From a virus (taxonomy: Duplodnaviria > Heunggongvirae > Uroviricota > Caudoviricetes): DNA of 64,000 nucleotides. The DNA is taken from positions 76,837 through 140,836 of the IMG/VR virus record IMGVR_UViG_3300037424_001372. One strand, 5' to 3'. Shown here piece after piece: positions 774-38,909 of the stretch (its first letter is position 1; each line of letters opens with the position of its first letter). The translations under genes were made by a program, and so were the position numbers. The notes beneath the pieces were generated by a model. That model ran no database searches. It was not told the DNA's origin and saw only the letters and a list, made by a program, of their open reading frames with translations.

Positions 774-812
774 AAATTCGAGATGATTAAATTATAATAT
801 CATCTCGAATTT
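774..812. terminator. Bidirectional hairpin between convergent genes
   Basis: Perfect 14-bp inverted repeat AAATTCGAGATGAT (774-787) / ATCATCTCGAATTT (799-812). One arm is the last codons of the 792-2462 gene. Confidence 0.6.
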
Positions 813-2462
813 CATATTCCCACAATCATATACACAATGATAACCCCTTTCCATCATAATTTGATGTTCTGTTTTATTTTTATCAAATCCTTGCTCAACC
901 AAAACATTCTTTCTAAATTTAAATCTATGATAACGAATCAACGTATTTTTTATAAAATACCAATAATTGATATCTGAATTACCAATGAACTTAAATCCTA
1001 ATTTTAAATATAAACCACCATTACTGTAACGTCTATCTGCATATGTTAAAATAGATTTGGGTTGGTATGTTTTAACGAAATAACTAAGTAATTTACTTGC
1101 ACCGCCTATTACTGTTGTGTTAAGTTTATTACAAAACCTCAGCATTTCATATTCACCATCAATACTTATTTTATTGCCCATTGCTAATCTTTTTTTACCA
1201 AATGTCATGATTGATACTAATTCATCATCATAATATAAACCTAATTTAATTTTACCTCCTATAAATCCTTGTATATGATTATTATTTAAAAAATTACGAA
1301 TTGAATTATTATTGTTAATTTCTTTAATTTCACATTTTCTAGCAAATATTTTATTTTCAATAATTCCTAGTTTGGATTTTATTATTGATTTAACAATATC
1401 TCTTTTATTTGCCCATTCATCTTCAAAAATATGTAGCAATTGAATACCTCGTTTTTTGCATAAATTAGTTTTATTTAAATGAAAATCTATATTTTTAAAT
1501 TTTGTTGAATGATAATAAATTCCATTAAATTCAATACCTATTTTATGCTCAGGTAAATAAATATCTATTTCACATTTATCAATTTTTATTTTTGATGCGT
1601 TAAGGTTTAATTCATTTATTATAAAATCAAGCACCTCAAGTTCATTTATTGATGATTGTTGTGATATTGGATAACATTCCGTACATAAATTAGTATTACT
1701 TCTTAATCTCGAAAAATAATTATTTTTTATTATTGTAAATGTTTTATGATATTTACAATAATTGCTTATTATCAATTCATTATCATGAATATTAACATCA
1801 CAGTTATTTAAGTTTAAAGTATTTGAAACATTTTCAATCATTTTAATTTTAGCATTTAATTTTATTTTATTCTTAATTGAATTAATATGATTTTTATCAT
1901 ATGATAAATGTTCAACACCATATTTTATTACATTAGTTTTCTTTATTTTCTCTTTAATGACTTCAGATTTAAATACATTATCAACACCATATTTATTGAA
2001 TGTCGTTTTTTTTTGCTTATCTCTAATTTTCTGTACCTTCATTGGGTTATCAACACCATAATTATTCCTACACGTTATTTCTATTTTTCTTCTAATGTCT
2101 TTTTTTTTCGATATGTGTTCATCTGAATAATATGTGATTTTTTTCTTATTTAACGTTGATTCAGATTTATTACTACATGTAGATGAACAAAATGTCGAAA
2201 ACCCCCTATTAACACTACCCAAAAATGTACAATTTTTACCACAAATAGGACATTTAGGTATTTCGTTTATATTATTAAGATATAGAAGAATTTTCTCTTT
2301 GAATAAACAACTATTTGCAGAATTATTTATTATTTTCTCATATAGTTTCGGAAGATGTTTACTCAACCATTTCTCTGTTGACTTATATCCAGACACGTTA
2401 TCTGTGGTAAACCATATCTTTAATTCTTCCTCAGTGTAATTATTAACATCATTCTCAATCAT
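792..2462 (-). CDS. Free-standing endonuclease, paralog A: Zn finger, 3 x 23-aa repeats, Vsr-like PD-(D/E)xK nuclease, Mom-like GNAT domain
   Basis: CPIC...FCSSTC; YGVDNP repeats; EIDIYLPEHKIGIEFNGIYYHS...HLNKT...QLLHIFEDEW; C-terminal KIFARKC...NHIQG...LVSIMTFG...YEMLRFC...GGASKLL...TYADRRYSNG.LY..LGF. Confidence 0.75.
   Translation of the reverse strand: MIENDVNNYTEEELKIWFTTDNVSGYKSTEKWLSKHLPKLYEKIINNSANSCLFKEKILLYLNNINEIPKCPICGKNCTFLGSVNRGFSTFCSSTCSNKSESTLNKKKITYYSDEHISKKKDIRRKIEITCRNNYGVDNPMKVQKIRDKQKKTTFNKYGVDNVFKSEVIKEKIKKTNVIKYGVEHLSYDKNHINSIKNKIKLNAKIKMIENVSNTLNLNNCDVNIHDNELIISNYCKYHKTFTIIKNNYFSRLRSNTNLCTECYPISQQSSINELEVLDFIINELNLNASKIKIDKCEIDIYLPEHKIGIEFNGIYYHSTKFKNIDFHLNKTNLCKKRGIQLLHIFEDEWANKRDIVKSIIKSKLGIIENKIFARKCEIKEINNNNSIRNFLNNNHIQGFIGGKIKLGLYYDDELVSIMTFGKKRLAMGNKISIDGEYEMLRFCNKLNTTVIGGASKLLSYFVKTYQPKSILTYADRRYSNGGLYLKLGFKFIGNSDINYWYFIKNTLIRYHRFKFRKNVLVEQGFDKNKTEHQIMMERGYHCVYDCGNMKFEMIL
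1866..2072 (-). repeat. Three 69-bp (23-aa) coding tandem repeats
   Basis: CRNNYGVDNPMKVQKIRDKQKKT / TFNKYGVDNVFKSEVIKEKIKKT / NVIKYGVEHLSYDKNHINSIKNK. Confidence 0.85.
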
Positions 2463-2607
2463 TTTTCATATCATTTTCTAACAACACTCTTATTTTTTCA
2501 GATAATGAATACCTCTTATCTTTACAATATTTTTGATATTGATTCTTTAACTCTGGACTTATTCTAATTTTAAGTTCAGTTGTTTTATCTTTTAAATATT
2601 TTTCCAT
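2455..2607 (-). CDS. Small ribbon-helix-helix-like DNA-binding protein (50 aa, not in the ORF track)
   Basis: Hand translation: MEKYLKDKTTELKIRISPELKNQYQKYCKDKRYSLSEKIRVLLENDMKND*. RHH pattern of strand (LKIRIS), helix, then S-L-S-E-x-I-R helix. Overlaps the start of the endonuclease by 8 bp. Confidence 0.7.
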   Translation of the reverse strand: MEKYLKDKTTELKIRISPELKNQYQKYCKDKRYSLSEKIRVLLENDMKND

Positions 2608-2629
2608 TTTAATTTTGAATTAGTTCCCA

Positions 2630-2660
2630 CAAATATAAATACTATAAACTTATAAAACAA
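2630..2660 (-). promoter_or_regulatory. Nested host-type (TTG-N20-TATATTTG) and phage late-type (GTATTTAT) promoter
   Basis: Minus strand: TTG 2660-2658, GTATTTAT 2642-2635, TATATTTG 2637-2630. Confidence 0.65.
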
Positions 2661-2662
2661 CA

Positions 2663-2670
2663 GTATTTAT
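2663..2670 (+). promoter_or_regulatory. Putative late promoter GTATTTAT
   Basis: Recurring motif, 39 nt upstream of the ATG at 2710. Confidence 0.65.
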
Positions 2671-2709
2671 ATTAAATATATTTTATGTGTAATATTTAAT
2701 TGAACTTAA

Positions 2710-3270
2710 ATGAAAAAAAATAAACAAATAATTGATTTAGAAACAAATCGAATGGGTATGTTTATGACAAACAATTCATTTAATTTGGATATAATGTATG
2801 GCAGAAATTTTCTTCAAACAGATAATGCTCAAACAGTAAAAATACATAAAATAAATATTATTGAAACTAAATCACATTCATTATATGGTCAAACAAAATC
2901 TAAAGATAAAAAATTCTTACCTCCTGTTGAATTAAGTGTTATGGTTAATATTGCTGGAGGTAAACAAGAATATTATGGAAGTAATCAAGGTGGCATCGCT
3001 CGTGATGATAGTGGTAATATTAGTTTTGGTGTTTATTTAAAGGAATTAGAAGAAAAACAAATTGAAATTGATAGGGGTGATATTATTGAATATAATATGA
3101 GTGGTGAAAAAAATCGTTATTATGAAGTTGAAAATGCTAATAATGTTACTGATGAAACAAGTAAAACTATTGGGGGATTCAAAAATTACTGGAAAAAGAT
3201 AACTGGTGTCCCCGTAAAATCTGACGTATTTAATTTTAATGATGGTGAAAAGGGCGATTTTTTAGTTTAA
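2710..3270 (+). CDS. Head completion/neck protein (T4 gp14-like)
   Basis: 'LYGQTK...FLPPVEL...GNISFGVYLKELEEKQIEIDRGDII...YYEV' pattern; follows the neck gene; late motif upstream. Confidence 0.55.
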   Translation: MKKNKQIIDLETNRMGMFMTNNSFNLDIMYGRNFLQTDNAQTVKIHKINIIETKSHSLYGQTKSKDKKFLPPVELSVMVNIAGGKQEYYGSNQGGIARDDSGNISFGVYLKELEEKQIEIDRGDIIEYNMSGEKNRYYEVENANNVTDETSKTIGGFKNYWKKITGVPVKSDVFNFNDGEKGDFLV

Positions 3271-3289
3271 ATATTTATAATTTTTAAAT

Positions 3290-3532
3290 TTATTCATCTT
3301 TCAAATATTTTGTTTTTATTTTATTTAATTCTTCTACAATCTTTTTATGTTGTTCTTTCGATTGTATTCCTAAATCATCGGCATATTCAATATAGATATC
3401 AATAACAAAGTTTAAAAACTCTTTCTCTTTATCTCTTAAATATACCGATGATTTAATGATCTTAAACAATGTCAGTGCTAATAGCAGTATAATTACCACC
3501 AATAATAATATTATAATATATAACACTAACAT
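3290..3532 (-). CDS. Small membrane protein (single N-terminal TM helix)
   Basis: Hydrophobic N-terminus of about 25 aa followed by a charged tail. Confidence 0.55.
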   Translation of the reverse strand: MLVLYIIILLLVVIILLLALTLFKIIKSSVYLRDKEKEFLNFVIDIYIEYADDLGIQSKEQHKKIVEELNKIKTKYLKDE

Positions 3533-3549
3533 TCAATATTTATTTTTAA

Positions 3550-4380
3550 TTAGATTGCAATTTCCAATGTTTTGCTTAATTTTTGAATACCTTCAATATT
3601 TTTTATTTCAAAATCATCAATAGTATATTCATAAAAGTTTTTCATTTCTTTTAAAACTAATATTGGTTGTTCTTCTAATGGTTCACGTTTTAATAATTCA
3701 TCGACAGAATCAAAATGTTTATCATATATATGTAAGTTTTGTGTCAAATGACAAAATTTACCAATATTATATCCTAAATGACCAGCAATCATCATTTGCA
3801 ATGCAACATATTGAATTTTATTAATGTAACCAGCCATAATATAATCATTACTTCTCTGTATAAGTGTTAAATCTAAATAAAAAATATTATTAACTTTTCT
3901 AACTGACCAAATAGTTTCATAAGCACATGGGTCTAAACCAATTGTAGAATTAATATCTTCATATTGATACATGTTTATAATGTGTCTACGCGCAAATGGA
4001 TTATATTCTAAAGAATATAAAAGTTTATTAATTAAATCATGTTTCTTAACTGTTGCACCATATCTTTGTCCAATAGTCCCATCACCAACATTCCATTCAT
4101 CCCACCAATTAATACCTAATTTGTGTGCATCTGATAAAATATTAGATTGTTTCTGATAAATCCAAAACATTTCTTTAATTCCAGTTTTTATTGCAGTATT
4201 TCTTAAAGTAGTTATTGGAAATTCCCCTTTAGATAAATCATATTCTTCAAATATTTGAGTAATAAATTTACTATGTGCTGGTTGACCATCTTTCCATTTT
4301 GGTCTTGGGTTTTCATCCCACTGTCCATCATTTAAAATTTTATTTAAATTTTGAATGTAATAATTATCTGCTTTTATCAT
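3550..4380 (-). CDS. thyA: Thymidylate synthase
   Basis: WWDEW, RRHIINMY, LDPCAY (catalytic Cys), QRSND and NLHIYD motifs. Confidence 0.95.
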   Translation of the reverse strand: MIKADNYYIQNLNKILNDGQWDENPRPKWKDGQPAHSKFITQIFEEYDLSKGEFPITTLRNTAIKTGIKEMFWIYQKQSNILSDAHKLGINWWDEWNVGDGTIGQRYGATVKKHDLINKLLYSLEYNPFARRHIINMYQYEDINSTIGLDPCAYETIWSVRKVNNIFYLDLTLIQRSNDYIMAGYINKIQYVALQMMIAGHLGYNIGKFCHLTQNLHIYDKHFDSVDELLKREPLEEQPILVLKEMKNFYEYTIDDFEIKNIEGIQKLSKTLEIAI

Positions 4381-5359
4381 AATAAAATTGATTAAATTTT
4401 TTTATATTATTAGTTAAATCTTCAATTAATATAGATGAATGTCTTGATTTTCTTATATTATCACTCCATAATATTAATTCTAAATTAGATGGATGTGAAA
4501 TTATATCAACCTCAATATTATTAATAAATCCTTCAAACACACTGAATTTATGGTCAAGTTGATATCCATCATTACCATTTGTAACTCTTTTTAAATTTTC
4601 TGGATTAATAAATTCATTATATTTAAGATAGTTTTTTCTGGTTAAATTTCTCACACTCTTACTATATTTTTTAAAATCACTTAAAAATTCATCTGGAATA
4701 ATCAATCCTCTTAAAATTTTAGTATTCCTTTGTTTTTTCACATTTTCTTCATTATTAATTAAAAAGGAATTGGTTACACCATATTTTGTTTCAATAATGG
4801 TTTTTATTTTATGAATTATTTCGGAAGATTTAAATGGATTATCAACGCCATAATTAATTAGCCAAGTTTTCTTTGCTTTATTTTTTATTTCTTCAGAATG
4901 AAATGAATGAAATACACCAAAATTTTGAAACATTTTTTCCTTAACCTTATCATTAAGTGATTTTACTTGAAATGTATATCCCCCGTATTTAATATTAAAT
5001 GTTTCGGTTCTTTTTTTAATTCTAATTTTCTTTTCATCATCACTTAAATTCAAATAACATTCTCTAAATTTATTTTTAGTTTCGTCCGAATTGTTATTAC
5101 ATTTATGGGAACAATATTTATTTTGAATATTTAACATATTTTTACCACATTGTGCACATTTATTAATACTATATTTATTATATAGTATATAATTTATTCT
5201 TACACTCAACGAAGGATTCATTTCATTTAAAAATGATGTTTCTTTTTGAATTTCAAAAATAAAATTCTCGTTCAAATGTGACATTTTTTTTGATGAAATA
5301 AGTGGTTTACTATTTCGTATAAAACAAACTTCATTAATTATTTTTTCTTTTATATTCAT
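4364..5359 (-). CDS. Free-standing HNH-type endonuclease with Zn finger and 4 copies of the 23-aa repeat
   Basis: CAQC...YCSHKC; (Y/F)G(V/G) repeats; C-terminal YQLDHKFSV...ISHPSNLELILWSDNIRKS (HNH-like). Overlaps the thyA start by 17 bp. Confidence 0.75.
   Translation of the reverse strand: MNIKEKIINEVCFIRNSKPLISSKKMSHLNENFIFEIQKETSFLNEMNPSLSVRINYILYNKYSINKCAQCGKNMLNIQNKYCSHKCNNNSDETKNKFRECYLNLSDDEKKIRIKKRTETFNIKYGGYTFQVKSLNDKVKEKMFQNFGVFHSFHSEEIKNKAKKTWLINYGVDNPFKSSEIIHKIKTIIETKYGVTNSFLINNEENVKKQRNTKILRGLIIPDEFLSDFKKYSKSVRNLTRKNYLKYNEFINPENLKRVTNGNDGYQLDHKFSVFEGFINNIEVDIISHPSNLELILWSDNIRKSRHSSILIEDLTNNIKKFNQFYYDKSR
4721..4999 (-). repeat. Four coding tandem repeats of about 23 aa
   Basis: FNIKYGGYTFQ.. 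/ MFQNFGVFHSFHSEEIKNKAKKT / WLINYGVDNPFKSSEIIHKIKTI / IETKYGVTNSF.. Confidence 0.75.
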
Positions 5360-5376
5360 GTTTGATTGCTTTTCTC

Positions 5377-5384
5377 ATAAATAC
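5377..5384 (-). promoter_or_regulatory. Putative late promoter GTATTTAT
   Basis: ATAAATAC on the + strand, 17 nt upstream of the 5359 start. Confidence 0.6.
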
Positions 5385-5470
5385 TAAGAAACCATAAAAA
5401 ATCATAATTTATTTTGAAATATGTTTACTTTCTTTTTCAACACCATTATTTATGATGTTTTGTAATAAGT

Positions 5471-5818: not shown

Positions 5819-5829
5819 ATTTAATTAGT

Positions 5830-6108: not shown

Positions 6109-6114
6109 ATTTAT

Positions 6115-6555: not shown

Positions 6556-6556
6556 A

Positions 6557-7163: not shown

Positions 7164-7179
7164 AGTTTGGTCATTTTGG

Positions 7180-7210: not shown

Positions 7211-7212
7211 GA

Positions 7213-7220: not shown

Positions 7221-7234
7221 ATTTAAAGTAGTAT

Positions 7235-13539: not shown

Positions 13540-15534
13540 TTAATATAGTTTTAATGAAAATTTTATCGTTCCACAGTTATAGATTTTATAAATATTATGT
13601 TCGATTAATATTTCGTCAATAGTTTTATTATCATCATACCAACCCAATTCAATAATTCTTTTTTTTCTAAAATTAAATCTATGATATCTCTGTTTTTGAT
13701 TGTTAGCAATATAATAATATGATGGTTTGTTAACATGAACTTCGTTAAAACCAATTTGTTTGTATAAATTACCTTGACTAAATCTTAAATCTGCATATGT
13801 TATAATTTCATGTGGGTTGTATGTTTTAATAAAATATTTTAATAATTTACTCGCACCACCAATAACATGTGTATTAATTTTATTACAAAATCTTGATAAA
13901 TTAAAAAATTTATCAGAATTTTTAGCATTACCCAATCCTTTTCTTGCCGTATCAAAACACATAATTGAAACTAAATCATTATTATAATATAAACCAATTG
14001 AAATTTCAGAAGGAACTGCTCCTTGGACATGATTTAACATTAAGAAATCACTTGTAGTCGATTTATCAATTTCTTTTATGACTGTGTTTCTACCATAAAT
14101 ATTATTTTCAATAATATTTAGTTTTGACTTAATTATTGACTTTATTATTTCTTTTTTATAAATCCATTCATCTTCATAAACATGTAATAATTGAATACCT
14201 TTATTATTACATAAATTTGTTTTATTCAGATGATAATTTTTATCTTTAAATAATTCAGAATGCCAATAAAGACCATTAAATTCAATAGCTAATTTATATT
14301 CTGGAAGATAAAAATCTAATTCTTGTTTGTTATCTAAAATAGATTTATCATTATTAACCAATTTAATATTTAATGACATTAAAAATGATTTTAATTCTAA
14401 TTCAATTATTGATTTATTTTCAGAAACGGGATTACATTTAGTACAAATATTTTCATGTTTATTCCAAATTAATCTACTATATAACAATGATTTGGAAATA
14501 TTAAAATTATCATGTTTTTTACAATAATTATTAATAGTTACATAATCCCCAATAATATCAATATCATTTTGATTTACATTTAATAAATTAGAATATTTTT
14601 TTATAAAATTTAAAATATTGGTTTTTTTAATTTTTAATATTATTTCAGGTGATTTTGAAATATTATCGACACCATATTTTTTTATTGTTGTTTCTTTTGA
14701 TTTTATTCTATTATTAAAATTTTCATCACCATATTTTTCTAATTTTATTTTTTTTACACTTTCTTTAATAACATCGCTCTTCATTGGGTTGTCGACACCA
14801 TATTCTTTTATTAATGTTCTATTTTTTTTTAAACTAAATTCATTAGAATTAAAATAATGTTCAACATCATACTTTTCTTTAACAGTCTTTCTGATTTTGT
14901 TTTTAATCTCATCAGATTTATTAGGATTGTCGACGCCATATTTTTTTAAATTAGTATTTTTGACTATTTCTTTAATAACTTCACTCTTCATTGGATTGTC
15001 GACACCATATTTTTTTAAAAGAGTTTCTTTTTTTTTGTTTTTAACTTCATCTAATTGATTATGACTTTCAACATTGTATTTCAATAAATTAGTTTGTCTT
15101 GTTTTTTCTTTAATAGTTGTAAGTTTTTGAGGGTGCTCAATACCATATCGTCTAATATTGGTTAATTTAATTTTTTCTTTTATTTCATTAGATTGTAAAG
15201 CATATTTTACCCCATTTTTTATTATTGAAGTTTGTTCTCTTTTTCCTTGAACAGTTTTATCTAAACCAAGACATTTCATTGAACAATATGACGAATAACC
15301 TTCACTAAATTTTTTAAATCGAACATCATTTTCACAAATAATACATTTGGGTGGATTAATCATGTCATGAGTAATTAAATATAACATTTCTGAAAATGAA
15401 ATGTTGTTATCTAAAAACGTTTTAATTATCTCGTTATATAAATTAGTATAATATTTTTGAAAATATTCTTTTGTCATTCTTTTTCTATTGATTTTACCTT
15501 CAACAAAAATAATACTATAAATCTTTTCTTTCAT
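13540..15534 (-). CDS. Free-standing endonuclease, paralog B: Zn finger, 9 repeats, Vsr-like nuclease, Mom-like GNAT domain
   Basis: Same architecture as 792-2462 (ELDFYLPEYKLAIEFNGLYWHS; GGASKLL; TYADLRFSQG.LY..IGF). Start set at ATG 15534, downstream of the promoter. Confidence 0.75.
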   Translation of the reverse strand: MKEKIYSIIFVEGKINRKRMTKEYFQKYYTNLYNEIIKTFLDNNISFSEMLYLITHDMINPPKCIICENDVRFKKFSEGYSSYCSMKCLGLDKTVQGKREQTSIIKNGVKYALQSNEIKEKIKLTNIRRYGIEHPQKLTTIKEKTRQTNLLKYNVESHNQLDEVKNKKKETLLKKYGVDNPMKSEVIKEIVKNTNLKKYGVDNPNKSDEIKNKIRKTVKEKYDVEHYFNSNEFSLKKNRTLIKEYGVDNPMKSDVIKESVKKIKLEKYGDENFNNRIKSKETTIKKYGVDNISKSPEIILKIKKTNILNFIKKYSNLLNVNQNDIDIIGDYVTINNYCKKHDNFNISKSLLYSRLIWNKHENICTKCNPVSENKSIIELELKSFLMSLNIKLVNNDKSILDNKQELDFYLPEYKLAIEFNGLYWHSELFKDKNYHLNKTNLCNNKGIQLLHVYEDEWIYKKEIIKSIIKSKLNIIENNIYGRNTVIKEIDKSTTSDFLMLNHVQGAVPSEISIGLYYNNDLVSIMCFDTARKGLGNAKNSDKFFNLSRFCNKINTHVIGGASKLLKYFIKTYNPHEIITYADLRFSQGNLYKQIGFNEVHVNKPSYYYIANNQKQRYHRFNFRKKRIIELGWYDDNKTIDEILIEHNIYKIYNCGTIKFSLKLY
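14620..15228 (-). repeat. Nine coding tandem repeats (8 x 23 aa plus 1 x 19 aa)
   Basis: GTCGAC recurs at 14791, 14929 and 14998 (multiples of 69 bp). Example units: LLKKYGVDNPMKSEVIKEIVKNT, NLKKYGVDNPNKSDEIKNKIRKT. Confidence 0.9.
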
Positions 15535-15585: not shown

Positions 15586-15717
15586 TAATTTTTTAATTAA
15601 ATTAGAATAATAATTTGAAATTCGATTAAAAATGAAATAAAAAAATATAAAAATTGGATGATTATTGTGGCGGAATCTGAATTGTATCAAATAATTAGTC
15701 TTTTGAATATTTTTCTA

Positions 15718-15782: not shown

Positions 15783-18548
15783 ATGGCAGATTTCGTATTT
15801 ACATCTCCGGGTGTTAAATTTAAAGAAAGAGATATTACTTTTGTAACACGTAATGTTGGTATCACGACATTAGGATTAGCTGGTGAAACATTAAAAGGAC
15901 CTGCTTTTGAACCGGTTTATATTCAAGACCAAACCCAATTTTTAAATAGATTTGGTGGACAAAGTATAAAAAGGTTTCAAAACGGTGAAAAAACATTACA
16001 ATATCAATTACCTTATGTTGCAAATGCTTTTTTGGAAGAAGCTCAACAACTTTGGGTAACTAGAGTACTTGGACTTAGTGGATATAAGGCAGGTAAATCA
16101 TGGAATATTTTATTAGATGCAGGTGTTGATTTATCTACATCAGGTGTTACAGGTTCTCCGGTAACAACAACAGATATTCCATTTACCGGAGCAGCTTATT
16201 TAGGCGTTTCACTTAATGGTATTGGGGTTACTGGTTCAACCGCCACAGGATACACAAAAAATAATAGTATTTTCTATCAAACAGTTCATGAATTCACTGC
16301 TACGACATATACTTCAGGTACTGGTACTGTTACTGATATAACAACAACATATTCAGCAAATTCATTAACAGAATATGAAAATATGGTATTGGCCGTTATT
16401 AGAAGTAGGGCGGTTTCAAATATTCCGATAGATTCAATTGCAGTAACAACACCCATTACAACTGATGTTGAAATTACTCAAAATGATACTTTAATTGATG
16501 CAGGTGATTTATTTGCGACAATTAAATTAGATGTTAATAATACTGATAATAGTTCGATATATTTTGGTACTAATGCAACATATTATGTATCATTAAATCC
16601 AAACGATTCCAACTATTTACCAAATGTTATAGGTCGTGAACCTAAAGATAAGAATACCATGATTTGGGTTCAAGCAATCTATCCAGATTTAATTAGAAAA
16701 CTTGATGCCGATAGCATTGCATATGGTATTAAATCAGAAATGATTGAAACTGATGAAAATAATACATATTTTGCGGATTATGAAGTTGGTTATCAAACAC
16801 CTGAAACTCCTTGGGTAGTATCTCAATTAAAAGGTAATAGTGTTGATAAATTATTTAAATTTATAAGTATTTCGGATGGAGATTCTGCTAATCAAGAAAT
16901 CAAAATTAGTATTGCAAATATTGACCCATATTCATTAGAATTTGATGTGGTTATTCGTGATTTTTATGATACCGATGCAAATGTTTCTGTTTTAGAAACC
17001 TATACAAGATGTAATTTAACCAAAGGTAGTTCAAATTATATTGGTCAACGTATTGGTACTAGTGATGGCGAATATAGTTTAATTAGTAAGTATATAATGG
17101 TAGAAGTTTCCGAAGAATTGGCTAATGATGTATACCCTGCCGGATTTGAGGGTTATTTGTTTAACAATTATTCGACTGAAGTGACCGGTAGTGCTACTGA
17201 AGGTATTTGTCCCGAAATATTTTATAAAACTTCTTATGCCGATACTGATAAGTTAGTGAAAACATATTTAGGTATTTCTGAATTAGCATATACTGGTAAT
17301 GGTATTAATCAAAATTTTTTTAATTTTAATAACTATTATAATGGTCAAACCGCTAGTGGATTTACTAAAACAAAAGGTTTTCACTTAGATTCTGGAGTAA
17401 CTATTATTACTGGAAATACCGAATTTGTTGGTGGTGCAGCAGCATTTAATACTACTGTTGATAGTAATACCACTGGTCCATATTATAACATTAAATCAAG
17501 AAAATTTACATTAGTTCCAGCAGGTGGTTTCGATGGTTGGGATGTAAATAGAACTGAACGTTCTTATGGAGATGATTATGTTCAAGGTGGAAGGAGAAGT
17601 GGACACCCCGGTGAACCATTAGTTGTTCCGACAAATGATTTTCAGGCATGGGAAACAGCTATAGATACTTTTGCTAATCCAGAGGATATTACTATTAACC
17701 TTTTCGCAACCCCCGGAATTGAGTGGGCTAATCAAACAACTTTAGTTCAAAATACTATTGATATGATTGAACAACAAAGAACAGATACTCTATATGTTAT
17801 TGATGCGCCTCAATTAAGCGAAGATTTTCTTTCAACAGTTGGTGATAGTGGTAAGGCAGATGTTTTAGCTGCCACAGAAATTGCCAATTTATTAGAAGAT
17901 ACATCGATAGATAGTAGTTATGCATGTACATACTATCCTTGGATTCAAATGCGCGATACTCAAAACAATGTTAATGTTTATATTCCACCAACTGGTGAAG
18001 TGGTTAAAGCAATGGCATATACTGATAACGTATCATTCCCTTGGTTTGCAGTAGCTGGTCTTAATCGTGGTGTTACTAACGCAAGAAAATCACAATTTAA
18101 ACTTTCTTTGGATGCTCGTGATATTCTTTATGCCGGTCGTGTAAATCCTATGGCAGATTTTGCAAATACTGGAACTGCTATTTTTGGCCAGAAAACACTT
18201 CAAGTTAAAGAAACTGCACTTGATAGGATCAATGTTCGTAGATTATTATTGCAAATCAAAGTGTTGATTTCAAATATTGCAGTTAGATTGTTATTCGAAC
18301 AAAATGACCAAGCGACTATCGACCAATTCTTAAATAAAGCAAATCCTATTCTTGATAGTATTAAACGTGAGAGAGGTTTAACTGATTTTAGAATAAAAAT
18401 GGATAGTAGTAATAACACCCCTGAAACTCGCGATAGAAACGAATTGTATGGTGAAATCTTCTTAAAACCAACTCGTTCGGTAGAATTTATTGGAATTACA
18501 TTCACGATAACGCCATCAGGAGCAAATTTTGCTGATGCAGGTGCTTAA
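15783..18548 (+). CDS. Tail sheath protein (T4 gp18-like)
   Basis: N-terminal SPGVKFKERD; C-terminal YYPWIQ..., PWFAVAGLNRG, VNP, FGQKTL, RINVRRLL, LFEQND, KPTRSVEFIGITF. Confidence 0.95.
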   Translation: MADFVFTSPGVKFKERDITFVTRNVGITTLGLAGETLKGPAFEPVYIQDQTQFLNRFGGQSIKRFQNGEKTLQYQLPYVANAFLEEAQQLWVTRVLGLSGYKAGKSWNILLDAGVDLSTSGVTGSPVTTTDIPFTGAAYLGVSLNGIGVTGSTATGYTKNNSIFYQTVHEFTATTYTSGTGTVTDITTTYSANSLTEYENMVLAVIRSRAVSNIPIDSIAVTTPITTDVEITQNDTLIDAGDLFATIKLDVNNTDNSSIYFGTNATYYVSLNPNDSNYLPNVIGREPKDKNTMIWVQAIYPDLIRKLDADSIAYGIKSEMIETDENNTYFADYEVGYQTPETPWVVSQLKGNSVDKLFKFISISDGDSANQEIKISIANIDPYSLEFDVVIRDFYDTDANVSVLETYTRCNLTKGSSNYIGQRIGTSDGEYSLISKYIMVEVSEELANDVYPAGFEGYLFNNYSTEVTGSATEGICPEIFYKTSYADTDKLVKTYLGISELAYTGNGINQNFFNFNNYYNGQTASGFTKTKGFHLDSGVTIITGNTEFVGGAAAFNTTVDSNTTGPYYNIKSRKFTLVPAGGFDGWDVNRTERSYGDDYVQGGRRSGHPGEPLVVPTNDFQAWETAIDTFANPEDITINLFATPGIEWANQTTLVQNTIDMIEQQRTDTLYVIDAPQLSEDFLSTVGDSGKADVLAATEIANLLEDTSIDSSYACTYYPWIQMRDTQNNVNVYIPPTGEVVKAMAYTDNVSFPWFAVAGLNRGVTNARKSQFKLSLDARDILYAGRVNPMADFANTGTAIFGQKTLQVKETALDRINVRRLLLQIKVLISNIAVRLLFEQNDQATIDQFLNKANPILDSIKRERGLTDFRIKMDSSNNTPETRDRNELYGEIFLKPTRSVEFIGITFTITPSGANFADAGA

Positions 18549-18595: not shown

Positions 18596-20137
18596 CTATA
18601 ATATTAATTCATATTTAAAATTACCACAATCATAAATTCTAGGTATTTTTCTATCTAACATTATTTCATGTTCGGATTTATTTAAATCAAAGCCCTCTTG
18701 AATTAAGTTACTTTTTCTAAAATTAAATCGATGTTTACGTTGTTTATTTATTACATAAAAATAATTTGGTGGTGTAATCTTTGTTTGTTTAAAATTTAAT
18801 TTTTCATATAAATTACCGTTTGAATATCTTCTATTCGCATATGTAATAATTTTATTTGGTTTATTTTTTTTTATAAAAAAATCTAATAATTTAGATGCTC
18901 CTCCAATAACAGAAGTATTTAACTTATTACAAAATCTCAATAATTCATAATCATTTAAATTTGATTTTGAGCCTAAAATATTTCTTAAATTACCGAAAGT
19001 CATTATCGAAACTAATTCATTATTATATAATAATCCAATATTATATTTACCATTAACATTTCCTTGAATATGATTTTTTTCTAAAAAATCTTTGGTAGTA
19101 ATATTATCGATATAAGTGATTTCACATTTTCGGGCAAATATTTTAATTTTTGTTAAATTTAATTTATTTAATATTATGGATTCAACAATATTAAATTTTT
19201 CAATAATTTCGTCTTCAAAAAATTGTAATAAATCATAATTAATGTCATTACATTTATTTAGTTTATTTATATGATAATGTTTATCAACATAATATTCTGA
19301 ATGCCAATGTAATCCATTAATTTCAATTCCAATATTTTTTTCAGGAATTAAAATATCGATTTCAAGATTTTTTAACAGTTTTCTATCATTAGCAATATAA
19401 TTCACATTATTAATATTAAGAAAATTACCTATTTTTAATTCTAATGTTGATTTGGGTGCAGAAACCGGTAATAATATTGTCGATAATTCAACATTATGAT
19501 TTAAACGATTAACTAATAACTTTCTATGATTTTCAAAAATATGTCCATCTGGATGTTGAATTTTAATATTATCATTATTAAAGTCAATTATTTTATAATT
19601 GATTTCTGCAAACCTTTGTATTAGATTTAAATTTCTTTTATTAATTATTGTTGCACGTGCTTTTTTTATTGAATCATGATTATTGTGTTTTATTTTATTT
19701 TGAATCGATTTTAATTTAAACAATGAATCAACACCATATTTTAACATCAAAGATTCTTTGCTTTTTTGTATTCTATTATTTTTATTTTCAATATTATTAT
19801 TCCAAATATTCCTACATAAAATTGAACAAAATTTTTTATCGTATTTTATCCTTTCTTTAAATTCATTTCCACATATTAAACAAATTCTATTCTCAGTACT
19901 ATTAACATGTTTAGCCTCTCCAGAACATTTATATGAACAATATTTTTTATTTTCTTTTATTTTAGATTTAAACAATTTACTACAATTTTGACATTCTTTC
20001 ATTTCAAAGAAAATTTCGTCTTTTTTTAATCTAAATTGTTTTTTACATTCATTAGAACAAGTTTTTTTTTCTTTTCCTTTTCTAACTTCAAAAGATTTGC
20101 CACAATTTTCACATATCATATTTACAATAACTGCCAT
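18596..20137 (-). CDS. Free-standing endonuclease, paralog C: 3 CxxC...CSxxC Zn fingers, 1 repeat, Vsr-like nuclease, Mom-like GNAT domain
   Basis: CENC..TCSNEC, CQNC..YCSYKC, CLIC..FCSILC; KYGVDSLFK; EIDILIPEKNIGIEINGLHWHS; GNAT motifs as in the other paralogs. Confidence 0.75.
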   Translation of the reverse strand: MAVIVNMICENCGKSFEVRKGKEKKTCSNECKKQFRLKKDEIFFEMKECQNCSKLFKSKIKENKKYCSYKCSGEAKHVNSTENRICLICGNEFKERIKYDKKFCSILCRNIWNNNIENKNNRIQKSKESLMLKYGVDSLFKLKSIQNKIKHNNHDSIKKARATIINKRNLNLIQRFAEINYKIIDFNNDNIKIQHPDGHIFENHRKLLVNRLNHNVELSTILLPVSAPKSTLELKIGNFLNINNVNYIANDRKLLKNLEIDILIPEKNIGIEINGLHWHSEYYVDKHYHINKLNKCNDINYDLLQFFEDEIIEKFNIVESIILNKLNLTKIKIFARKCEITYIDNITTKDFLEKNHIQGNVNGKYNIGLLYNNELVSIMTFGNLRNILGSKSNLNDYELLRFCNKLNTSVIGGASKLLDFFIKKNKPNKIITYANRRYSNGNLYEKLNFKQTKITPPNYFYVINKQRKHRFNFRKSNLIQEGFDLNKSEHEIMLDRKIPRIYDCGNFKYELIL

Positions 20138-20523: not shown

Positions 20524-21021
20524 ATGGCAGCAGAAGAAACTATGATTAGAACGATGCCGTTCGATTATGAACCAAAAAGAACGAATCGATTTTTTGCAGT
20601 ATTCGATGATTCTTTAGGTATTCAAGTTTGGAAAGTTCAAAAATTCAAAAGACCGTCAATGAAAATAAATTCAGTTCCTATTCAATATATGAATGAACAG
20701 AATTATGTGGCTGGTCGATATACTTGGGATACGATGTCAATAACTTTTCTTGACCCGATAGGTCCTTCAACCTCACAACAATTAATGGAATGGGTTCGTT
20801 TACATGCGGAATCACTTACAGGTCGTATGGGTTATGCTGCGGGTTATAAAAAAGACATTGTGTTAAAATCTCTTGACCCAACAGGTGTTGAAGTTGAAAA
20901 ATGGTTTTTAGAACAATGTATGATTACAAGCATTGACTTTGGTGAAAATGATTATGGTAATGATGAGTTAACTAATGTCAGTTTAGAAATCCAGCCGTGG
21001 AGGTGCGTACTTAACGTATAA
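20524..21021 (+). CDS. Tail tube protein (T4 gp19-like)
   Basis: EPKRTNRF, RPS..., YVAGRYTWDTMSITFLDPI, MEW, YKKDI.L..LDPTG..VEKW.L; follows the sheath gene. Confidence 0.9.
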   Translation: MAAEETMIRTMPFDYEPKRTNRFFAVFDDSLGIQVWKVQKFKRPSMKINSVPIQYMNEQNYVAGRYTWDTMSITFLDPIGPSTSQQLMEWVRLHAESLTGRMGYAAGYKKDIVLKSLDPTGVEVEKWFLEQCMITSIDFGENDYGNDELTNVSLEIQPWRCVLNV

Positions 21022-33317: not shown

Positions 33318-33325
33318 GTATTTAT
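33318..33325 (+). promoter_or_regulatory. Putative late promoter GTATTTAT
   Basis: 13 nt upstream of ATG 33339. Confidence 0.65.
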
Positions 33326-33338
33326 AAAAAAAGTTTAA

Positions 33339-36300
33339 ATGGCTGAAGTACCTTCAAGATTATCAGATGGAAATATAATATATTATGGTGATAATATACC
33401 TATCCAAGAGTATCGTGAAAAGATATATGCACGTAGTTTATATAGTTTAGATAATGAATATGGTAATACCAATAAATTTTCTTTAAGAAATAAAGGTAAT
33501 GTCGCTAGTGGAATTCAAAGTGTTTTAAATGTAGTACCTCAATATAATCGCATACAAACAAGCACTAATTTATTAGGAAATGTTTATGATGCATTTCGAG
33601 ATGAAGGTTCCCCATTATCAAAGATTGGTTTAATAATGTTAGGTAAACAATTAGCATATAATTCTGCTGCTAATTTAGCTACTAAATATTTACCAACAAT
33701 CGATTTAAGTCAGGTATTAAAAGGCAATCCTACTGATATTTTTAAAAAAAATATTGATAATACTATTACAATTAAAGATAGTTCAACTTCAACCTTTTTA
33801 GATAAGGTAGGTAAGACTGCTAGTAATATTTTTGGTTTTGATACATACAATGTTTTTGGAAATGCAAATCCATTTACTAAAAATCCTACCAATGTTGATT
33901 ACATTAAAAATACTGGTAATGCTCAATTAACTCGATTCTTTAAGTCAATTAACTTAAATCCATATAAATCAATTAATACTTCAGATAATTCTGATTATAC
34001 CACAGTATTACGTGAATATAGTAATAATGTGGGCGTTAATTTATTAGATGGTTCTGATATCATTAATAATAAAAAGTTTTTTATTTTTGACAATAAGAAA
34101 CAAAAACCTTATTTTAGTAGAAGTTTAACTATCAATCCTATTGAGTCTAATGCTATTGCAAATTCAAATATGGTTTCATCATATTTTAATTCTGGTTTAG
34201 GTGAAATTCAGGAATATGGTCCTAGTTACCAATTCGTTATTGAAAATTTTGGCGAAATTAAAAAATATCAAGGGAAAACTAATATTTTAAATTATGTTAG
34301 TGATGAACCAAATTTATCTTATGATGATAAAAATGATAAATTAGTATGGGGTCGTGATGGTGTTGGAGTACAAGCCGAAACATATATTAAAGATTTACGT
34401 GGTGATTACGATAGTATTGATCTTAATCAAGATAATGGTATATTAGATAGTGGCAATAATGGTGCTAAAACAGGTTTACTTAATTACACCAAAAACTTAT
34501 TAAATGCTAGTGAAGGTAATTTTGTTGATATAACTCGTAAAGCATTTAAGGAAGGTACAAATTATATTGGATTTAATGGTTCTCCATTGTGGAAATCCAA
34601 TAATAGTAAATATGCTCTTGAGACTGGTTATAATGTTGATGAAGTTGGTATTAGACAACATACAGTACTAGACCCATATAATAATTTTATTAAAACAATT
34701 AGATTTAAAGGTAATTATGTTTATGACGGCAGTGAAAATTCTGTGATAAATAAAACTATTTTACCTAAAATCCATCCAATTAGAACCGATGATGGTAAAA
34801 TCGATAATAGAAATTTAATATTTAGTCTTGAAAATCTTGCTGTCGATACAATTAAAAAAGATACTTATGCAATATTGGCCGATGAATATGGTACAGCGAT
34901 TCCATTAAGCGAAGCAGGTCCTTTTGGAGGTAGATTAATGTGGTTTCCTCCATATAACATTACTTTAAATGAAACTGCTTCTGCAAAATATGATTCCACT
35001 GTTATGATTGGTCGTAGTGAACCAATGTATAATTATATGAATTCTGAAAGAACTGCCACACTAACATTTTCATTATTAGTTGATTATCCCGAACAATTAA
35101 GAAATTTAAAATATCAAGGCAATAATAAAAATAAAATAATTGCAGATTTTTTTGCTTACGGTGGTGATAATATCCCAATCGAATCAAAAATAGATGATAT
35201 TGAATTACGAATAACCAATCTGAAAGCTCAAATTGATAATTATGGTACCCCTGTCATTCAAACAGAACCACCGGCACAAATACTTCCAGATGTGACAATA
35301 TTTTACCCTAATGATGAACCACATGATTATAATGTTGATTCTATTATAGATAAAATGTATAATGATTATCATTATGAAATTATTGATGGCTTAAATTCCG
35401 GTGTTAATGGTGGTGATGGTAATGGTTTTGGATTAAATAATAGTATGTATTTTGTTTCAGGACTAACAGGGACTATTGTTGAAGGTAAACAAGTTTGGAC
35501 TTTAGTCGATAATAGTGTTTCACAATATAACAGTATTGATACTTATGGTCAAGATGATAATTTTTGTAAATTAAATGAAAATTTAAAGAATCTTTTTAGT
35601 GACGAAAATACTAGAAAATATTATTCAATATACATAAGGTCAACGTCATCTAAATTATATTTAGGTGATAATGAAGATAAATATAATAAAGAGTTAGGTA
35701 ATAGACGAAATTTAGCTGCAAAAAATCTTATTGTTAATAAATTAGTTAAGATGTTTGGTATGTCAGTGGCTAATGAATTGGAATTAAATAATATTGTGTT
35801 ATATAATAGTATTGGTAGTGTCGATAGTGGTACTGTTGGTGCTAAATCTGAAAATATGCATTTAAGAGAAGTTAAAGAAGAAAGGAAAACTGTTATAAGT
35901 TTTGGTCGAAATAAAGTTCCAATTGATAAGAAAGAAAATAATTTAACTACTAAGGAAAAACAAGAAATTGCTTTAATTAATGCTGATATCGATAAATTAA
36001 CCATCCAGTTAAATAAATTAAAAAAGAATTTAACTGAATTTGTGTTTAATGAAAGAGATAATTATAAAGGTAGTTTAAGTGGATTTGAATCTATTAGCAA
36101 TAATCAATATAGACCTGTTTTTCATAGTCAAACTCCTGAAGATTTTCATAGAAGATTAACATTTTTACATCAATGTACCAGACAAGGACCTGCTAAAAGA
36201 TATAATATTGTTGATACTAATGGTCAATTAAGAGCAAGAAATAGTGTTTTTGGCAAACAACCAATATGTATTTTAAGAGTTGGCGATTTTTGGCACACTA

Positions 36301-36659
36301 AAGTAATTATTGAAAACGTAACATTTGATTATAATGAAACAACGTGGGATTTAAACCCCGAAGGTCATGGATTACAACCAATGTTAGTTAATATAACCTT
36401 ACAAATGAAAATAATTGGTGGTCAATCATTGAAAGGTCCTATCGATGCACTTCAAAATGCTGCAACATTTAATTATTATGCCAATTCGACATTTAATTCT
36501 AAAGAAGATATTTATAAAAGAGCTACTGATGTAGAATCAAAACAAAATAGTTATTATTTTGGTATTGATACTAAATATGATGAAAATGGTAATGTAACAA
36601 CTGGAATAATGGGTGAAAGAAACAAATCATTAATAAAATCAATAGGAGGGACCGAATAA
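33339..36659 (+). CDS. Baseplate/tail-tube initiator protein with an inserted OmpA-like domain
   Basis: Split tube-like fold (WFPPY...IGRSEPMYNYMNSERTATLTFSLLVD ... PICILRVGDFWHTKVIIENVTFDY..TWD...PM..NITL) flanking 'YNKELGNRRNLAAKNLI'. Confidence 0.6.
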   Translation: MAEVPSRLSDGNIIYYGDNIPIQEYREKIYARSLYSLDNEYGNTNKFSLRNKGNVASGIQSVLNVVPQYNRIQTSTNLLGNVYDAFRDEGSPLSKIGLIMLGKQLAYNSAANLATKYLPTIDLSQVLKGNPTDIFKKNIDNTITIKDSSTSTFLDKVGKTASNIFGFDTYNVFGNANPFTKNPTNVDYIKNTGNAQLTRFFKSINLNPYKSINTSDNSDYTTVLREYSNNVGVNLLDGSDIINNKKFFIFDNKKQKPYFSRSLTINPIESNAIANSNMVSSYFNSGLGEIQEYGPSYQFVIENFGEIKKYQGKTNILNYVSDEPNLSYDDKNDKLVWGRDGVGVQAETYIKDLRGDYDSIDLNQDNGILDSGNNGAKTGLLNYTKNLLNASEGNFVDITRKAFKEGTNYIGFNGSPLWKSNNSKYALETGYNVDEVGIRQHTVLDPYNNFIKTIRFKGNYVYDGSENSVINKTILPKIHPIRTDDGKIDNRNLIFSLENLAVDTIKKDTYAILADEYGTAIPLSEAGPFGGRLMWFPPYNITLNETASAKYDSTVMIGRSEPMYNYMNSERTATLTFSLLVDYPEQLRNLKYQGNNKNKIIADFFAYGGDNIPIESKIDDIELRITNLKAQIDNYGTPVIQTEPPAQILPDVTIFYPNDEPHDYNVDSIIDKMYNDYHYEIIDGLNSGVNGGDGNGFGLNNSMYFVSGLTGTIVEGKQVWTLVDNSVSQYNSIDTYGQDDNFCKLNENLKNLFSDENTRKYYSIYIRSTSSKLYLGDNEDKYNKELGNRRNLAAKNLIVNKLVKMFGMSVANELELNNIVLYNSIGSVDSGTVGAKSENMHLREVKEERKTVISFGRNKVPIDKKENNLTTKEKQEIALINADIDKLTIQLNKLKKNLTEFVFNERDNYKGSLSGFESISNNQYRPVFHSQTPEDFHRRLTFLHQCTRQGPAKRYNIVDTNGQLRARNSVFGKQPICILRVGDFWHTKVIIENVTFDYNETTWDLNPEGHGLQPMLVNITLQMKIIGGQSLKGPIDALQNAATFNYYANSTFNSKEDIYKRATDVESKQNSYYFGIDTKYDENGNVTTGIMGERNKSLIKSIGGTE

Positions 36660-36970
36660 TGCCTTATCAAGATTATAATAGATACGAATTATTAAAAAAT
36701 TCAAACGGTACTACTGATGCAATGCCGTTTGTAAAATTACCTGAAAATCCTAGTGATAAATTTGAATATTGGAATACTAATTTTAGTAGATTGGATATTT
36801 TATCTCAAAAATATTATGGTAATCCTTTTTACGATTTTTTAATTCTTTATGGAAATAATGTTTATTTAAGTGAATTTGATATACCTGATGGTACATTGAT
36901 AAAAATACCATTTCCACTTTCTAAAGCAAAGGCAGATTATGAGCAGATTTTAATGTCATTTAAAACTTAA
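36659..36970 (+). CDS. LysM-like baseplate wedge protein (gp53/tail X-like)
   Basis: RLDILSQKYYGNP....IL..N......IPDGTLIKIP. Confidence 0.75.
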   Translation: MPYQDYNRYELLKNSNGTTDAMPFVKLPENPSDKFEYWNTNFSRLDILSQKYYGNPFYDFLILYGNNVYLSEFDIPDGTLIKIPFPLSKAKADYEQILMSFKT

Positions 36971-36976
36971 TAAAAA

Positions 36977-37008
36977 TTTGATTTTTTCATTTTTAATGTA
37001 TTTATTTG
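36977..37008 (+). promoter_or_regulatory. Late motif GTATTTAT overlapping a near-consensus host promoter
   Basis: TTTG 36977-36980, GTATTTAT 36998-37005, TTTATTTG 37001-37008 (one mismatch to TAnnTTTG). Confidence 0.5.
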
Positions 37009-37025
37009 TAGCAAATATTTTATAG

Positions 37026-38909
37026 ATGAAAAAAGAATGTATTGAAATTTTAGAAAAAAAAATATATTTTGAAAAATATATAAAAAAAACTTATCCATTA
37101 TTATATGATGAAATAATAAAATTTAATTCTAAATTAGATATTTCATGGTTAAATAAATTATATAATTACATATTTAATATTAAAATTCATCCTAAATGTG
37201 AATATTGTAATACACAATTAAATTTTAGAAATAAAATTAGTATTGGATATGGTCAATATTGCTCAAAAAAATGTACTTCTTTAGCTACAAGAGATAAGGT
37301 AATAAATACTAATTTAGAAAAATATGGTGTTGAATATCCTTTACAAAATAAGGAAATTTATCAAAAATTAATTAATACTAATTTAGAAAAATATGGTGTT
37401 ATTTCAACACTATTAGATGAAAAGGTTCAAGAAAAAATTAAACAAACTAATTTAGTTAGACATGGCGTTGAAAATCCGTCTCAATCAGATTTAATAAAAT
37501 ATAAACGCAAACAAACTAATTTAAAAAAATATGGTGTTGAGAATGTTTTTTGTGTAAATATTATAAAAAATAAAATTAAAGAATGTAATGAAAATAAATC
37601 CCATTTTGAAAAAGAGTTTATTAAAGAAAAAACTAAAAAAACTAATTTAAAAAAATATGGGGTGTCAACAGTTCTTATTTTAGAAGAAAATAGAAAAAAA
37701 ATGATTAATTATAATATTAATCATTTAGGTGTTAAATATCCTTTACAAAATGAAGAAATTAGAAATAAATCAAAAAAAACTATTTTGAATAAATATGGCA
37801 CCATTAGTATTAGTAGTTCCAATTATTATAAGGAATGTATTAATACTAATTTAATTAAAAAATATTCATTATTACTTAATTTAAATAATAATAATATTAA
37901 ATATAATAATAATATTTTTATTATTAAAAATTATTGTGAATTACATAAAAAATTTCATATAAAATATGATGATTTATATAATAGAATATTTCTTGGTTGT
38001 AATAACATTTGTACCAAATGCAACCCAATATCTAAACAATCTAAAATAAAGGAAAACGAAATCAATGATTATATCAAATCATTGAATGTTAAATACATAA
38101 GAAACGATAGGAAAATTCTATCCCGTAAAGAGCTAGATTTTTATCTCCCAGATAATAAATTGGCAATTGAATTCAACGGTTTATATTGGCATTCGAATAA
38201 ATATAATTCAAATAATTATCATTTGGATAAAACCAATTCTTGTGAAGAGCAAAACATACAATTATTACATGTGTTTGAGGATGAGTGGGTTTATAAAAAA
38301 GAAATTGTTAAAAGCATTATTAAATCTAAGTTGGGAATAATTGAAAATAAAATATTTGCAAGAAAAACAGAAATAAAAGAAATAACTGATAATAATTTAA
38401 CTAAAGAATTTCTTGAAAATAACCACTTACAAGGTTCTATCAATTCTTCAATTAAGTTAGGATTATTCCATAATAATCAATTAGTTAGTCTTATGACTTT
38501 TGGAAAAAAACGGGTTGCTTTAGGCAATAAAACACAAAATATTGGTGAATATGAGATGTTAAGGTTCTGCAATAAACTTAATACTCAGGTAGTTGGAGGT
38601 GCTAGTAAATTATTAAAATATTTCACAAACAATTACCGACCCAAAGAAATATTAACTTTTGCAGATAGGAGATATAGTAATGGTAATCTATATAAAGAAC
38701 TAGGATTTAATTACTTAGGAAATACCAAACCTAATTATTGGTATTTTAAAAAGAACGAATTGGTAAGATATCATAGATTTAATTTCAGAAAAGATATTTT
38801 GGTTAAAGAAGGTTTTGATTCAAATAAAACCGAACATCAAATAATGGAAGAAAAGGGATATTTGAGAATATACGATTCGGGGAATATGAAATTTAAAATA
38901 AAATGTTGA
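37026..38909 (+). CDS. Free-standing endonuclease, paralog D: Zn finger, about 8 repeats, Vsr-like nuclease, Mom-like GNAT domain
   Basis: CEYC..YCSKKC; NLEKYGV repeats; ELDFYLPDNKLAIEFNGLYWHS; GGASKLL, TFADRRYSNGNLYKELGF. Confidence 0.75.
   Translation: MKKECIEILEKKIYFEKYIKKTYPLLYDEIIKFNSKLDISWLNKLYNYIFNIKIHPKCEYCNTQLNFRNKISIGYGQYCSKKCTSLATRDKVINTNLEKYGVEYPLQNKEIYQKLINTNLEKYGVISTLLDEKVQEKIKQTNLVRHGVENPSQSDLIKYKRKQTNLKKYGVENVFCVNIIKNKIKECNENKSHFEKEFIKEKTKKTNLKKYGVSTVLILEENRKKMINYNINHLGVKYPLQNEEIRNKSKKTILNKYGTISISSSNYYKECINTNLIKKYSLLLNLNNNNIKYNNNIFIIKNYCELHKKFHIKYDDLYNRIFLGCNNICTKCNPISKQSKIKENEINDYIKSLNVKYIRNDRKILSRKELDFYLPDNKLAIEFNGLYWHSNKYNSNNYHLDKTNSCEEQNIQLLHVFEDEWVYKKEIVKSIIKSKLGIIENKIFARKTEIKEITDNNLTKEFLENNHLQGSINSSIKLGLFHNNQLVSLMTFGKKRVALGNKTQNIGEYEMLRFCNKLNTQVVGGASKLLKYFTNNYRPKEILTFADRRYSNGNLYKELGFNYLGNTKPNYWYFKKNELVRYHRFNFRKDILVKEGFDSNKTEHQIMEEKGYLRIYDSGNMKFKIKC
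37311..37847 (+). repeat. Seven repeats of about 23 aa plus one degenerate 19-aa unit
   Basis: Identical 27-mer AATACTAATTTAGAAAAATATGGTGTT at 37305 and 37374 (69-bp period). Confidence 0.85.

Follow-up and report, generated by a model that had tools for sequence, protein, structure and literature searches.

We analyzed four related genes in a stretch of 64,000 nucleotides, below called the window, which comprises bases 76837-140836 of the IMG/VR virus record IMGVR_UViG_3300037424_001372 (324,744 bp, ~25% G+C), the genome of a T4-like jumbo phage. An earlier note made from the sequence alone had described them as fusions of a Vsr-like nuclease with a Mom-like GNAT domain. All four open reading frames were present as described there, and every sequence motif quoted was found in the aligned paralogs. 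The analyses below make us very confident that the genes encode free-standing Hef-like homing endonucleases of the EDxHD (Vsr-like) type, located between conserved structural genes of the phage. Each protein ends in a domain that is related to the DNA modification enzyme Mom of phage Mu.

Architecture of the nuclease-GNAT paralogs

The genes and their parts are arranged in the window as follows.

792-2462, minus strand: copy 1 (P0001), 556 aa; full-length match to phrog_3339 'homing endonuclease' (3e-132)
1815-2462, minus strand: copy 1, zinc ribbon and 3 KYGV (DUF7487) repeats
1359-1814, minus strand: copy 1, zinc knuckle and Vsr-like nuclease
795-1358, minus strand: copy 1, Mom-related GNAT domain
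13540-15534, minus strand: copy 2 (P0002), 664 aa from the ATG at 15534; matches to DUF7487 (1e-34) and Vsr (1.4e-4)
14581-15534, minus strand: copy 2, ~9 KYGV repeats
14107-14580, minus strand: copy 2, nuclease
13543-14106, minus strand: copy 2, Mom-related GNAT domain
18596-20137, minus strand: copy 3 (P0003), 513 aa; lies antisense in the gap that separates the tail sheath gene from the tail tube gene
19616-20137, minus strand: copy 3, three CxxC...CxxxC zinc ribbons and 1 KYGV repeat
19154-19615, minus strand: copy 3, nuclease
18599-19153, minus strand: copy 3, Mom-related GNAT domain
37026-38909, plus strand: copy 4 (P0004), 627 aa
37026-37877, plus strand: copy 4, zinc ribbon and ~7 KYGV repeats of 23 aa (Pfam DUF7487, 6e-29)
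37878-38336, plus strand: copy 4, zinc knuckle and Vsr-like (EDxHD-type) nuclease domain
38337-38906, plus strand: copy 4, Mom-related GNAT domain

The four copies in the window can be aligned end to end with 40-51% identity, and the mean pairwise identity climbs along the protein, from 28% in the N-terminal array to 46% in the nuclease and 54% in the C-terminal domain. The latter is the best conserved part of the protein, in agreement with the proposal of the earlier note that it is under constraint in all four copies. For copy 2 a longer frame starting with TTG reaches position 15690; this extension does not align to the other copies, and the ATG at 15534 is most likely the start codon. An origin within introns or inteins was ruled out, since each copy is a separate open reading frame in a gap between genes, and three copies are antisense to at least one neighbor.

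In copies 1, 2 and 4 the N-terminus consists of a CxxC...CxxxC ribbon followed by 3, ~9 and ~7 units, respectively, of the 23-aa KYGV repeat, which corresponds to Pfam DUF7487 (E-values as low as 1e-34). Including copy 3, the paralogs contain 1, 3, ~7 or ~9 repeats. A Cys/His knuckle is located between this array and the nuclease domain. Zinc ribbon and KYGV repeats together presumably form a DNA-recognition array; a literature search for DUF7487 found no paper mentioning it. In copy 3, the three zinc-ribbon units stand in for most of the KYGV array, and it is only in this part of the protein that PHROG 'HNH endonuclease' families match. It seems that recognition modules can be exchanged.

Genome-wide, the core of nuclease and C-terminal domain occurs in six copies, all of them within ~47 kb, and two of the six are encoded just upstream of the window. 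The fifth paralog (L001:8383-10011) is located just downstream of the gp23 capsid gene; here a ROS/MucR-type zinc finger replaces the KYGV array and is followed by domains resembling a restriction endonuclease (REase) and a GNAT, with a weak match to Pfam Acetyltransf_1. The sixth paralog (L001:10068-11570, G000:C1:70067-71569), ~5.3 kb upstream of the window, has an N-terminal Mom-related domain (aa 69-249); the nuclease behind it (aa 260-345) is of the GIY-YIG and not of the Vsr-like type, showing that the GNAT domain pairs with two unrelated nuclease folds. Its residues at the positions equivalent to Mom S124 and R151 are E and N, respectively.

Relationship of the two core domains to I-Bth0305I and Mom

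Searches with the nuclease in Pfam and NCBIfam yielded only matches below threshold (Vsr and REase in Pfam, Vsr in NCBIfam). An AlphaFold model of the copy 4 domain, generated with 55 homologues, reached a predicted local distance difference test (pLDDT) value of 88.6. When this model was used for a Foldseek search, the catalytic domain of I-Bth0305I (3r3p) was found on ranks 1 and 2 (E 1.8e-4, template modeling score TMt 0.73-0.78, 24-25% identity), followed on ranks 3 and 4 by the Vsr protein of E. coli (1vsr and 1cw0). The nuclease family profile likewise matched 3r3p among the PDB sequences (E 2.2e-6), and in the resulting alignment the first Glu, D196, N208 and H213 of I-Bth0305I correspond to the invariant E, D, N and H of the family. 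D222 aligns to an invariant His, and four of the five EDxHD catalytic positions are kept. Both searches thus bear out the assignment as a Vsr-like nuclease, with I-Bth0305I as best match before Vsr itself. The EDxHD family was defined on I-Bth0305I and includes the phage homing endonucleases of the 'Hef type' (Taylor et al., 2011, PMC3239194).

The proteins share with I-Bth0305I and with Hef of the T4-like phage U5 the Vsr-like catalytic domain and the placement of DNA-binding modules ahead of the nuclease, on its N-terminal side; they are likewise phage-borne and occur free-standing beside conserved genes. In contrast to them, I-Bth0305I is intron-encoded, contains NUMODs instead of DUF7487 KYGV repeats or zinc ribbons, retains D222 as last catalytic Asp where the family has the His, and ends after the nuclease domain without a GNAT domain.

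The C-terminal domain comprises ~190 aa. Pfam did not report Mom for the full-length proteins; matches required a scan of the isolated domain, in which copy 4 reached 37.3 bits with Mom (PF25680; cut-off 27.1), copy 3 stayed below the cut-off with 20.2 bits, and copies 1 and 2 were without match. A precomputed PF25680 label is present on many database relatives. A model of the copy 4 domain, built with 39 homologues, has a pLDDT of 93.7 and the strand and helix order of a GNAT. The highest ranking Foldseek match of this model was the crystal structure of phage Mu Mom (8bv8; E 6e-8, TM 0.60/0.53, 18% identity), and ordinary acetyltransferases were found at lower ranks; altogether, 97 matches had E <= 1e-3, those listed being GNAT acetyltransferases. 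With VIA-align, Z values of ~13-15 to many GNATs were obtained; Mom aligned with Z 13.4 over 137 residues, and its identity of 20% was the highest among the structures listed. When the family profile was compared by hhalign with one built from 46 stand-alone Mom homologues, the probability was 94.3% and the E-value 9.7e-8 over 127 columns. Against the PDB sequences, a phmmer search with the C-terminal domain returned only spurious NanE epimerase matches, and the family profile did not find Mom but only a weak match to glyphosate acetyltransferase. Mom was thus recovered by fold search and profile-profile comparison only, and not by the PDB sequence searches. The comparison with Mom and other GNATs that the earlier note had suggested therefore revealed a GNAT fold, which stands closest to Mu Mom in the Foldseek ranking and in which the key residues of Mom are kept.

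These residues are located in the following family motifs (Mom numbering refers to the 231-aa form / the 241-aa form).

H48/H58: NH.QG
R101/R111: L.RFC
S114/S124: GGAS
D139/D149 and R141/R151: AD.R
Y149/Y159: LY

Among 272 family members the equivalents of R101/R111 and of the Tyr are conserved in 100%, the His in 99.6%, the Asp in 89%, the Ser in 86% and the second Arg in 73%. Copies 1, 2 and 4 have kept all aligned key residues. The aligned positions include residues that are essential or important in Mom, and mutation of R111, S124, D149 or Y159 abolishes Mom catalysis (PMC13219725; PMC7261163). R101 is conserved among Mom homologues and not across GNATs in general (PMC7261163).

The two groups differ in the loop that connects strand 4 to helix 3 (residues 83-100 of the model). 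The family contains V-I-G-G-A-S at this position, with the two Gly residues conserved in 99% and 92% and the Ala in 91%, whereas Mom homologues contain P-R-N-x-E-S with N and S invariant. Judged by its sequence, the family loop fits the GNAT cofactor loop Q/R-x-x-G-x-G/A. Given this difference from Mom, the acyl donor may be another one, possibly acyl-coenzyme A (acyl-CoA). Between the last strands the model shows three short helices (residues 147-172), which occupy the same topological position as the helix-turn-helix (HTH)-like insertion of Mom.

Mu Mom and the family domain thus have in common the GNAT fold, the equivalents of R111, S124, D149, R151, Y159 and H58, and, as far as the model of the family domain shows, an extra helical insertion between the last strands (PMC13219725 for Mom). 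Mom is, however, a stand-alone protein of 231-241 aa that catalyzes carbamoylmethylation of adenine N6: glycine is transferred from Gly-tRNA(Gly) to adenine N6 in double-stranded DNA at SAS sites and subsequently rearranged on the base (PMC13219725). Because of the different loop, the lack of Mom residues Y59 and W48, and a C-terminal third that cannot be aligned to Mom by sequence, the domain is termed Mom-related here and is not a proven Mom orthologue.

Neighboring genes and occupancy of the insertion sites

The following neighboring genes could be assigned to families.

15783-18548, plus strand: tail sheath gene (phrog_23 tail sheath, 3e-63), with copies 2 and 3 on either side
20524-21021, plus strand: tail tube gene (phrog_4542 tail tube, 1.6e-27), downstream of copy 3
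38950-40394: glycosyltransferase gene (Glyco_tranf_2_5, 5e-26), heading the gene cluster directly after copy 4

The earlier note had placed all four copies next to virion genes. For the tail sheath and tail tube this is confirmed by the PHROG matches; the labels 'neck' and 'LysM baseplate' given to other neighbors were not reproduced, as Pfam and PHROG gave no family match for them. The gene for a gp23-type major capsid protein is located just upstream of the window.

To compare the insertion sites, contigs of related phages were gathered via three flanking proteins, and each site was scored as occupied or empty.

Site X (copy 1), between a 372-aa gene and a 186-aa gene: occupied by the family in 4 of 75 relatives; 4-bp gap in many others
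Site A (copy 2), between an 821-aa gene and the sheath gene: occupied by the family in 2 of 40 relatives
Site B (copy 3), gap between sheath and tube genes: 62 relatives, of which 3 are occupied, 58 are empty and 1 contains a 310-nt remnant
Site Y (copy 4), between a 103-aa gene and the glycosyltransferase gene: occupied by the family in 0 of 29 relatives; flanks 68-113 bp apart in 15

The remnant at site B is a piece of the Mom-related domain that lies between the sheath and tube genes of one relative (L050:8827-9764) and looks like a decayed copy. Because the insertions are sporadic, associated with specific sites, located beside conserved genes and occasionally decayed, the four genes behave as free-standing mobile homing endonuclease genes. 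Since the sites are empty in most relatives, the data point to site-specific homing elements rather than to a general restriction-modification (R-M) system. The basis for mobility in this comparison is presence/absence polymorphism only.

A phylogenetic tree of the core showed that copy 2 is sister to the copy of relative L010 at the same site A (support 100/99). Copy 3 groups with the copies at site B in L034 and L059 (99/97), which are oppositely oriented. The remaining same-site copies do not group.

The empty gaps between sheath and tube genes (L002-L066) fall into two size groups of ~70-140 bp and ~400-800 bp, and in some relatives site X contains inserts of 840-1800 bp that do not belong to this family (L148-L227). 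The sites may thus be used by other small genes or other mobile genes. Upstream of the window, the prohead protease gene (L001:3003-4847) and a UvrD-like helicase gene (L001:13382-15931) each contain an intein with a LAGLIDADG endonuclease. Selfish elements are densely packed in this part of the genome. When the region was compared by megablast with 50,697 phage records, no match was obtained.

At the level of protein families, the core is abundant. Among 8,000 scored candidates from a database clustered at 90%, more than 6,454 relatives were found, and the GNAT domain alone matched 17,205 clusters at 50% identity, being nearly always C-terminal in a protein of 480-700 aa. The nuclease-GNAT core is present at 1,040 places in 418 sequenced phage records, with 11 places in each of the Campylobacter phages, five in Pseudomonas phage Ettore and three in Bacillus phage PBS1. 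These records usually annotate it as 'homing endonuclease' or 'putative Hef-like homing endonuclease', the latter corresponding to the label that the earlier note had given for similar proteins.

A putative DNA transferase within a homing endonuclease

In the mechanism that we propose, the zinc ribbon and the variable array of 23-aa KYGV repeats would read a long target near the insertion site of the gene itself. Going by the family to which it belongs, the Vsr-like domain would cut genomes that lack the gene, and repair of the cut would copy the gene in. The Mom-related GNAT domain is a putative active transferase, which would attach an acyl or aminoacyl group to a base, probably to adenine N6, in or near the resident target, so that the modified carrier genome would be immune to its own nuclease. 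That these proteins are homing endonucleases with a putative GNAT transferase that chemically immunizes the carrier genome at its own target is in our view plausible, although somewhat short of probable. More tentatively, the Hef-like family may carry a putative site-directed acyl- or aminoacyltransferase for DNA bases, by which the carrier would be immunized chemically and not by drift of the target sequence. The mark may differ from that of Mu, since the clade keeps a G-x-A loop of the CoA type, which true Mom lacks. The earlier note had counted the lack of an acyl-CoA pocket among the findings that would speak against this activity; because Mu Mom uses Gly-tRNA(Gly) and not acyl-CoA, this criterion is outdated and not decisive. 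In the whole genome ARAGORN identified 33 tRNA genes with a single tRNA-Gly (UCC) at 16084-16170, which is of possible interest because of the use of Gly-tRNA(Gly) by Mu Mom.

The fusion of Mom to a nuclease and the R-M-like logic of self-marking are not new but have already been published as predictions. Iyer et al. (2021, PMC7824862) described Mom domains of jumbo phages that are fused to REase-fold nucleases and predicted a pair of modification and restriction activities, with five such enzymes in PA5oct. Their fusions have the same architecture as the proteins analyzed here and likewise occur in several copies per genome in jumbo phages of group 2 (T4-like), and the prediction to modify self and cut others is the same. 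Their study framed them as an R-M-like counter-defence and did not address mobility, whereas the comparison with empty sites reported here reveals the behavior of homing elements. In the R-M interpretation, the Mom domain would mark adenines throughout the genome and the nuclease would attack host DNA or the DNA of superinfecting phages at many short sites, the gene being kept as a weapon for defence or offence and not for its own spread. The conservation of catalytic residues in both domains and the frequency of multi-copy genomes, such as those of the Campylobacter phages, are in line with it. However, a long array that differs from copy to copy, with 1 to ~9 repeats or with zinc ribbons, suits rare long targets and not frequent short ones. 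The same sites are free of the gene in most close relatives and one contains a degraded remnant, which is the pattern of selfish homing, and the closest characterized relative of the nuclease is a site-specific homing enzyme. We therefore regard such a weapon as unlikely and favor homing over general restriction, since the arrays are long and copy-specific and the sites are empty in relatives. The resemblance to type IIC/IIG R-M enzymes, which also combine nuclease, modification and DNA recognition in one polypeptide, is one of function only: these enzymes act at short sites with an S-adenosylmethionine methyltransferase and a nuclease of the PD-(D/E)XK or a similar type, their modification domain is not homologous, and their genes are not site-specifically mobile.

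Two further explanations concern the GNAT domain itself. It might have no DNA modification activity and serve as a structural module, either by dimerizing and thereby pairing two Vsr-type nicks into a double-strand break, or by increasing target specificity as a DNA clamp that flips bases. Mu Mom is a tight dimer and was modeled to bind double-stranded DNA and to flip the adenine (PMC13219725); moreover, Vsr-type domains nick one strand, and the activity of I-Bth0305I has been linked to dimerization (PMC3239194). The absence of Y59 and W48 from the family and the loss of the Ser and the second Arg in the sixth copy, the GIY-YIG fusion, would also agree with a module of this kind. On the other hand, retention at 86-100% concerns precisely the positions at which mutation abolishes catalysis in Mom (R111, S124, D149 and Y159), and a G-G-A-S loop conserved to 91-99% at the cofactor-binding position is hard to explain if the domain is purely structural. 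Because the catalytic residues of Mom and the cofactor loop are highly conserved, an active enzyme is favored, and a purely structural role appears improbable. Alternatively, the domain could act on a substrate other than DNA, be it aminoacyl-tRNA as in toxins of the TacT/AtaT type, a protein of the host or of the phage, or the very endonuclease to which it belongs, and thereby tune the infection or its own activity. The VIA-align Z values of ~14 to protein N-terminal acetyltransferases such as RimI, Ard1 and Naa50 are as close as that to Mom (13.4), and fold alone cannot predict the substrates of GNATs (PMC13219725). Yet the family has in common with Mom both the Arg specific to Mom and the D-x-R motif, sequence identity among the structures listed is highest with Mom, and in thousands of proteins the domain is always fused to modules that bind and cut DNA. 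Of the explanations considered, a substrate other than DNA thus seems to us very unlikely.

Several observations weigh against chemical immunization of the carrier genome by the GNAT domain. Free-standing phage homing endonucleases are usually self-immune by polymorphism of their target and need no modification. This holds for the free-standing seg and mob genes of T4, which are also found between conserved phage genes, are sporadic among relatives and likely spread in co-infection; they encode GIY-YIG or HNH nucleases without a modification domain, and self-immunity results from differences in the target sequence. Hef reportedly cut the DNA of its own phage in vitro in work by Sandegren et al. 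from 2005, an observation that is compatible with either view. Within the domain, only one of the four copies passes the Pfam cut-off for Mom, and the D149 position is occupied by N in copy 3 and in 21 of the 272 relatives. In the hhalign comparison Mom Y59 aligns to I, L or V, and there is no conservation of W48, a dimer residue of Mom. No sequence alignment to Mom was obtained for the last ~50 residues, the part that forms the essential HTH-like insertion in Mom. Iyer et al. are said to have made the Mom prediction in 2009, and our literature search found no experimental test or demonstrated activity of the Mom-like domain in these proteins.

The window adds four ordinary members to an abundant family that is already annotated and discussed in the literature. 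What the present analysis contributes is clean comparative evidence for the mobility of Mom-fused genes, together with a comparison, residue by residue, to the recently solved Mom enzyme. If the Mom-related domain indeed marks the target of its own endonuclease, phage 'homing endonucleases' would in thousands of cases be hybrid elements that both cut and protect, and they would carry out an unstudied and possibly new site-specific modification of DNA bases. In such a natural and programmable combination, the KYGV array would serve as the modular reader of DNA and the GNAT domain as the enzyme that acylates it.

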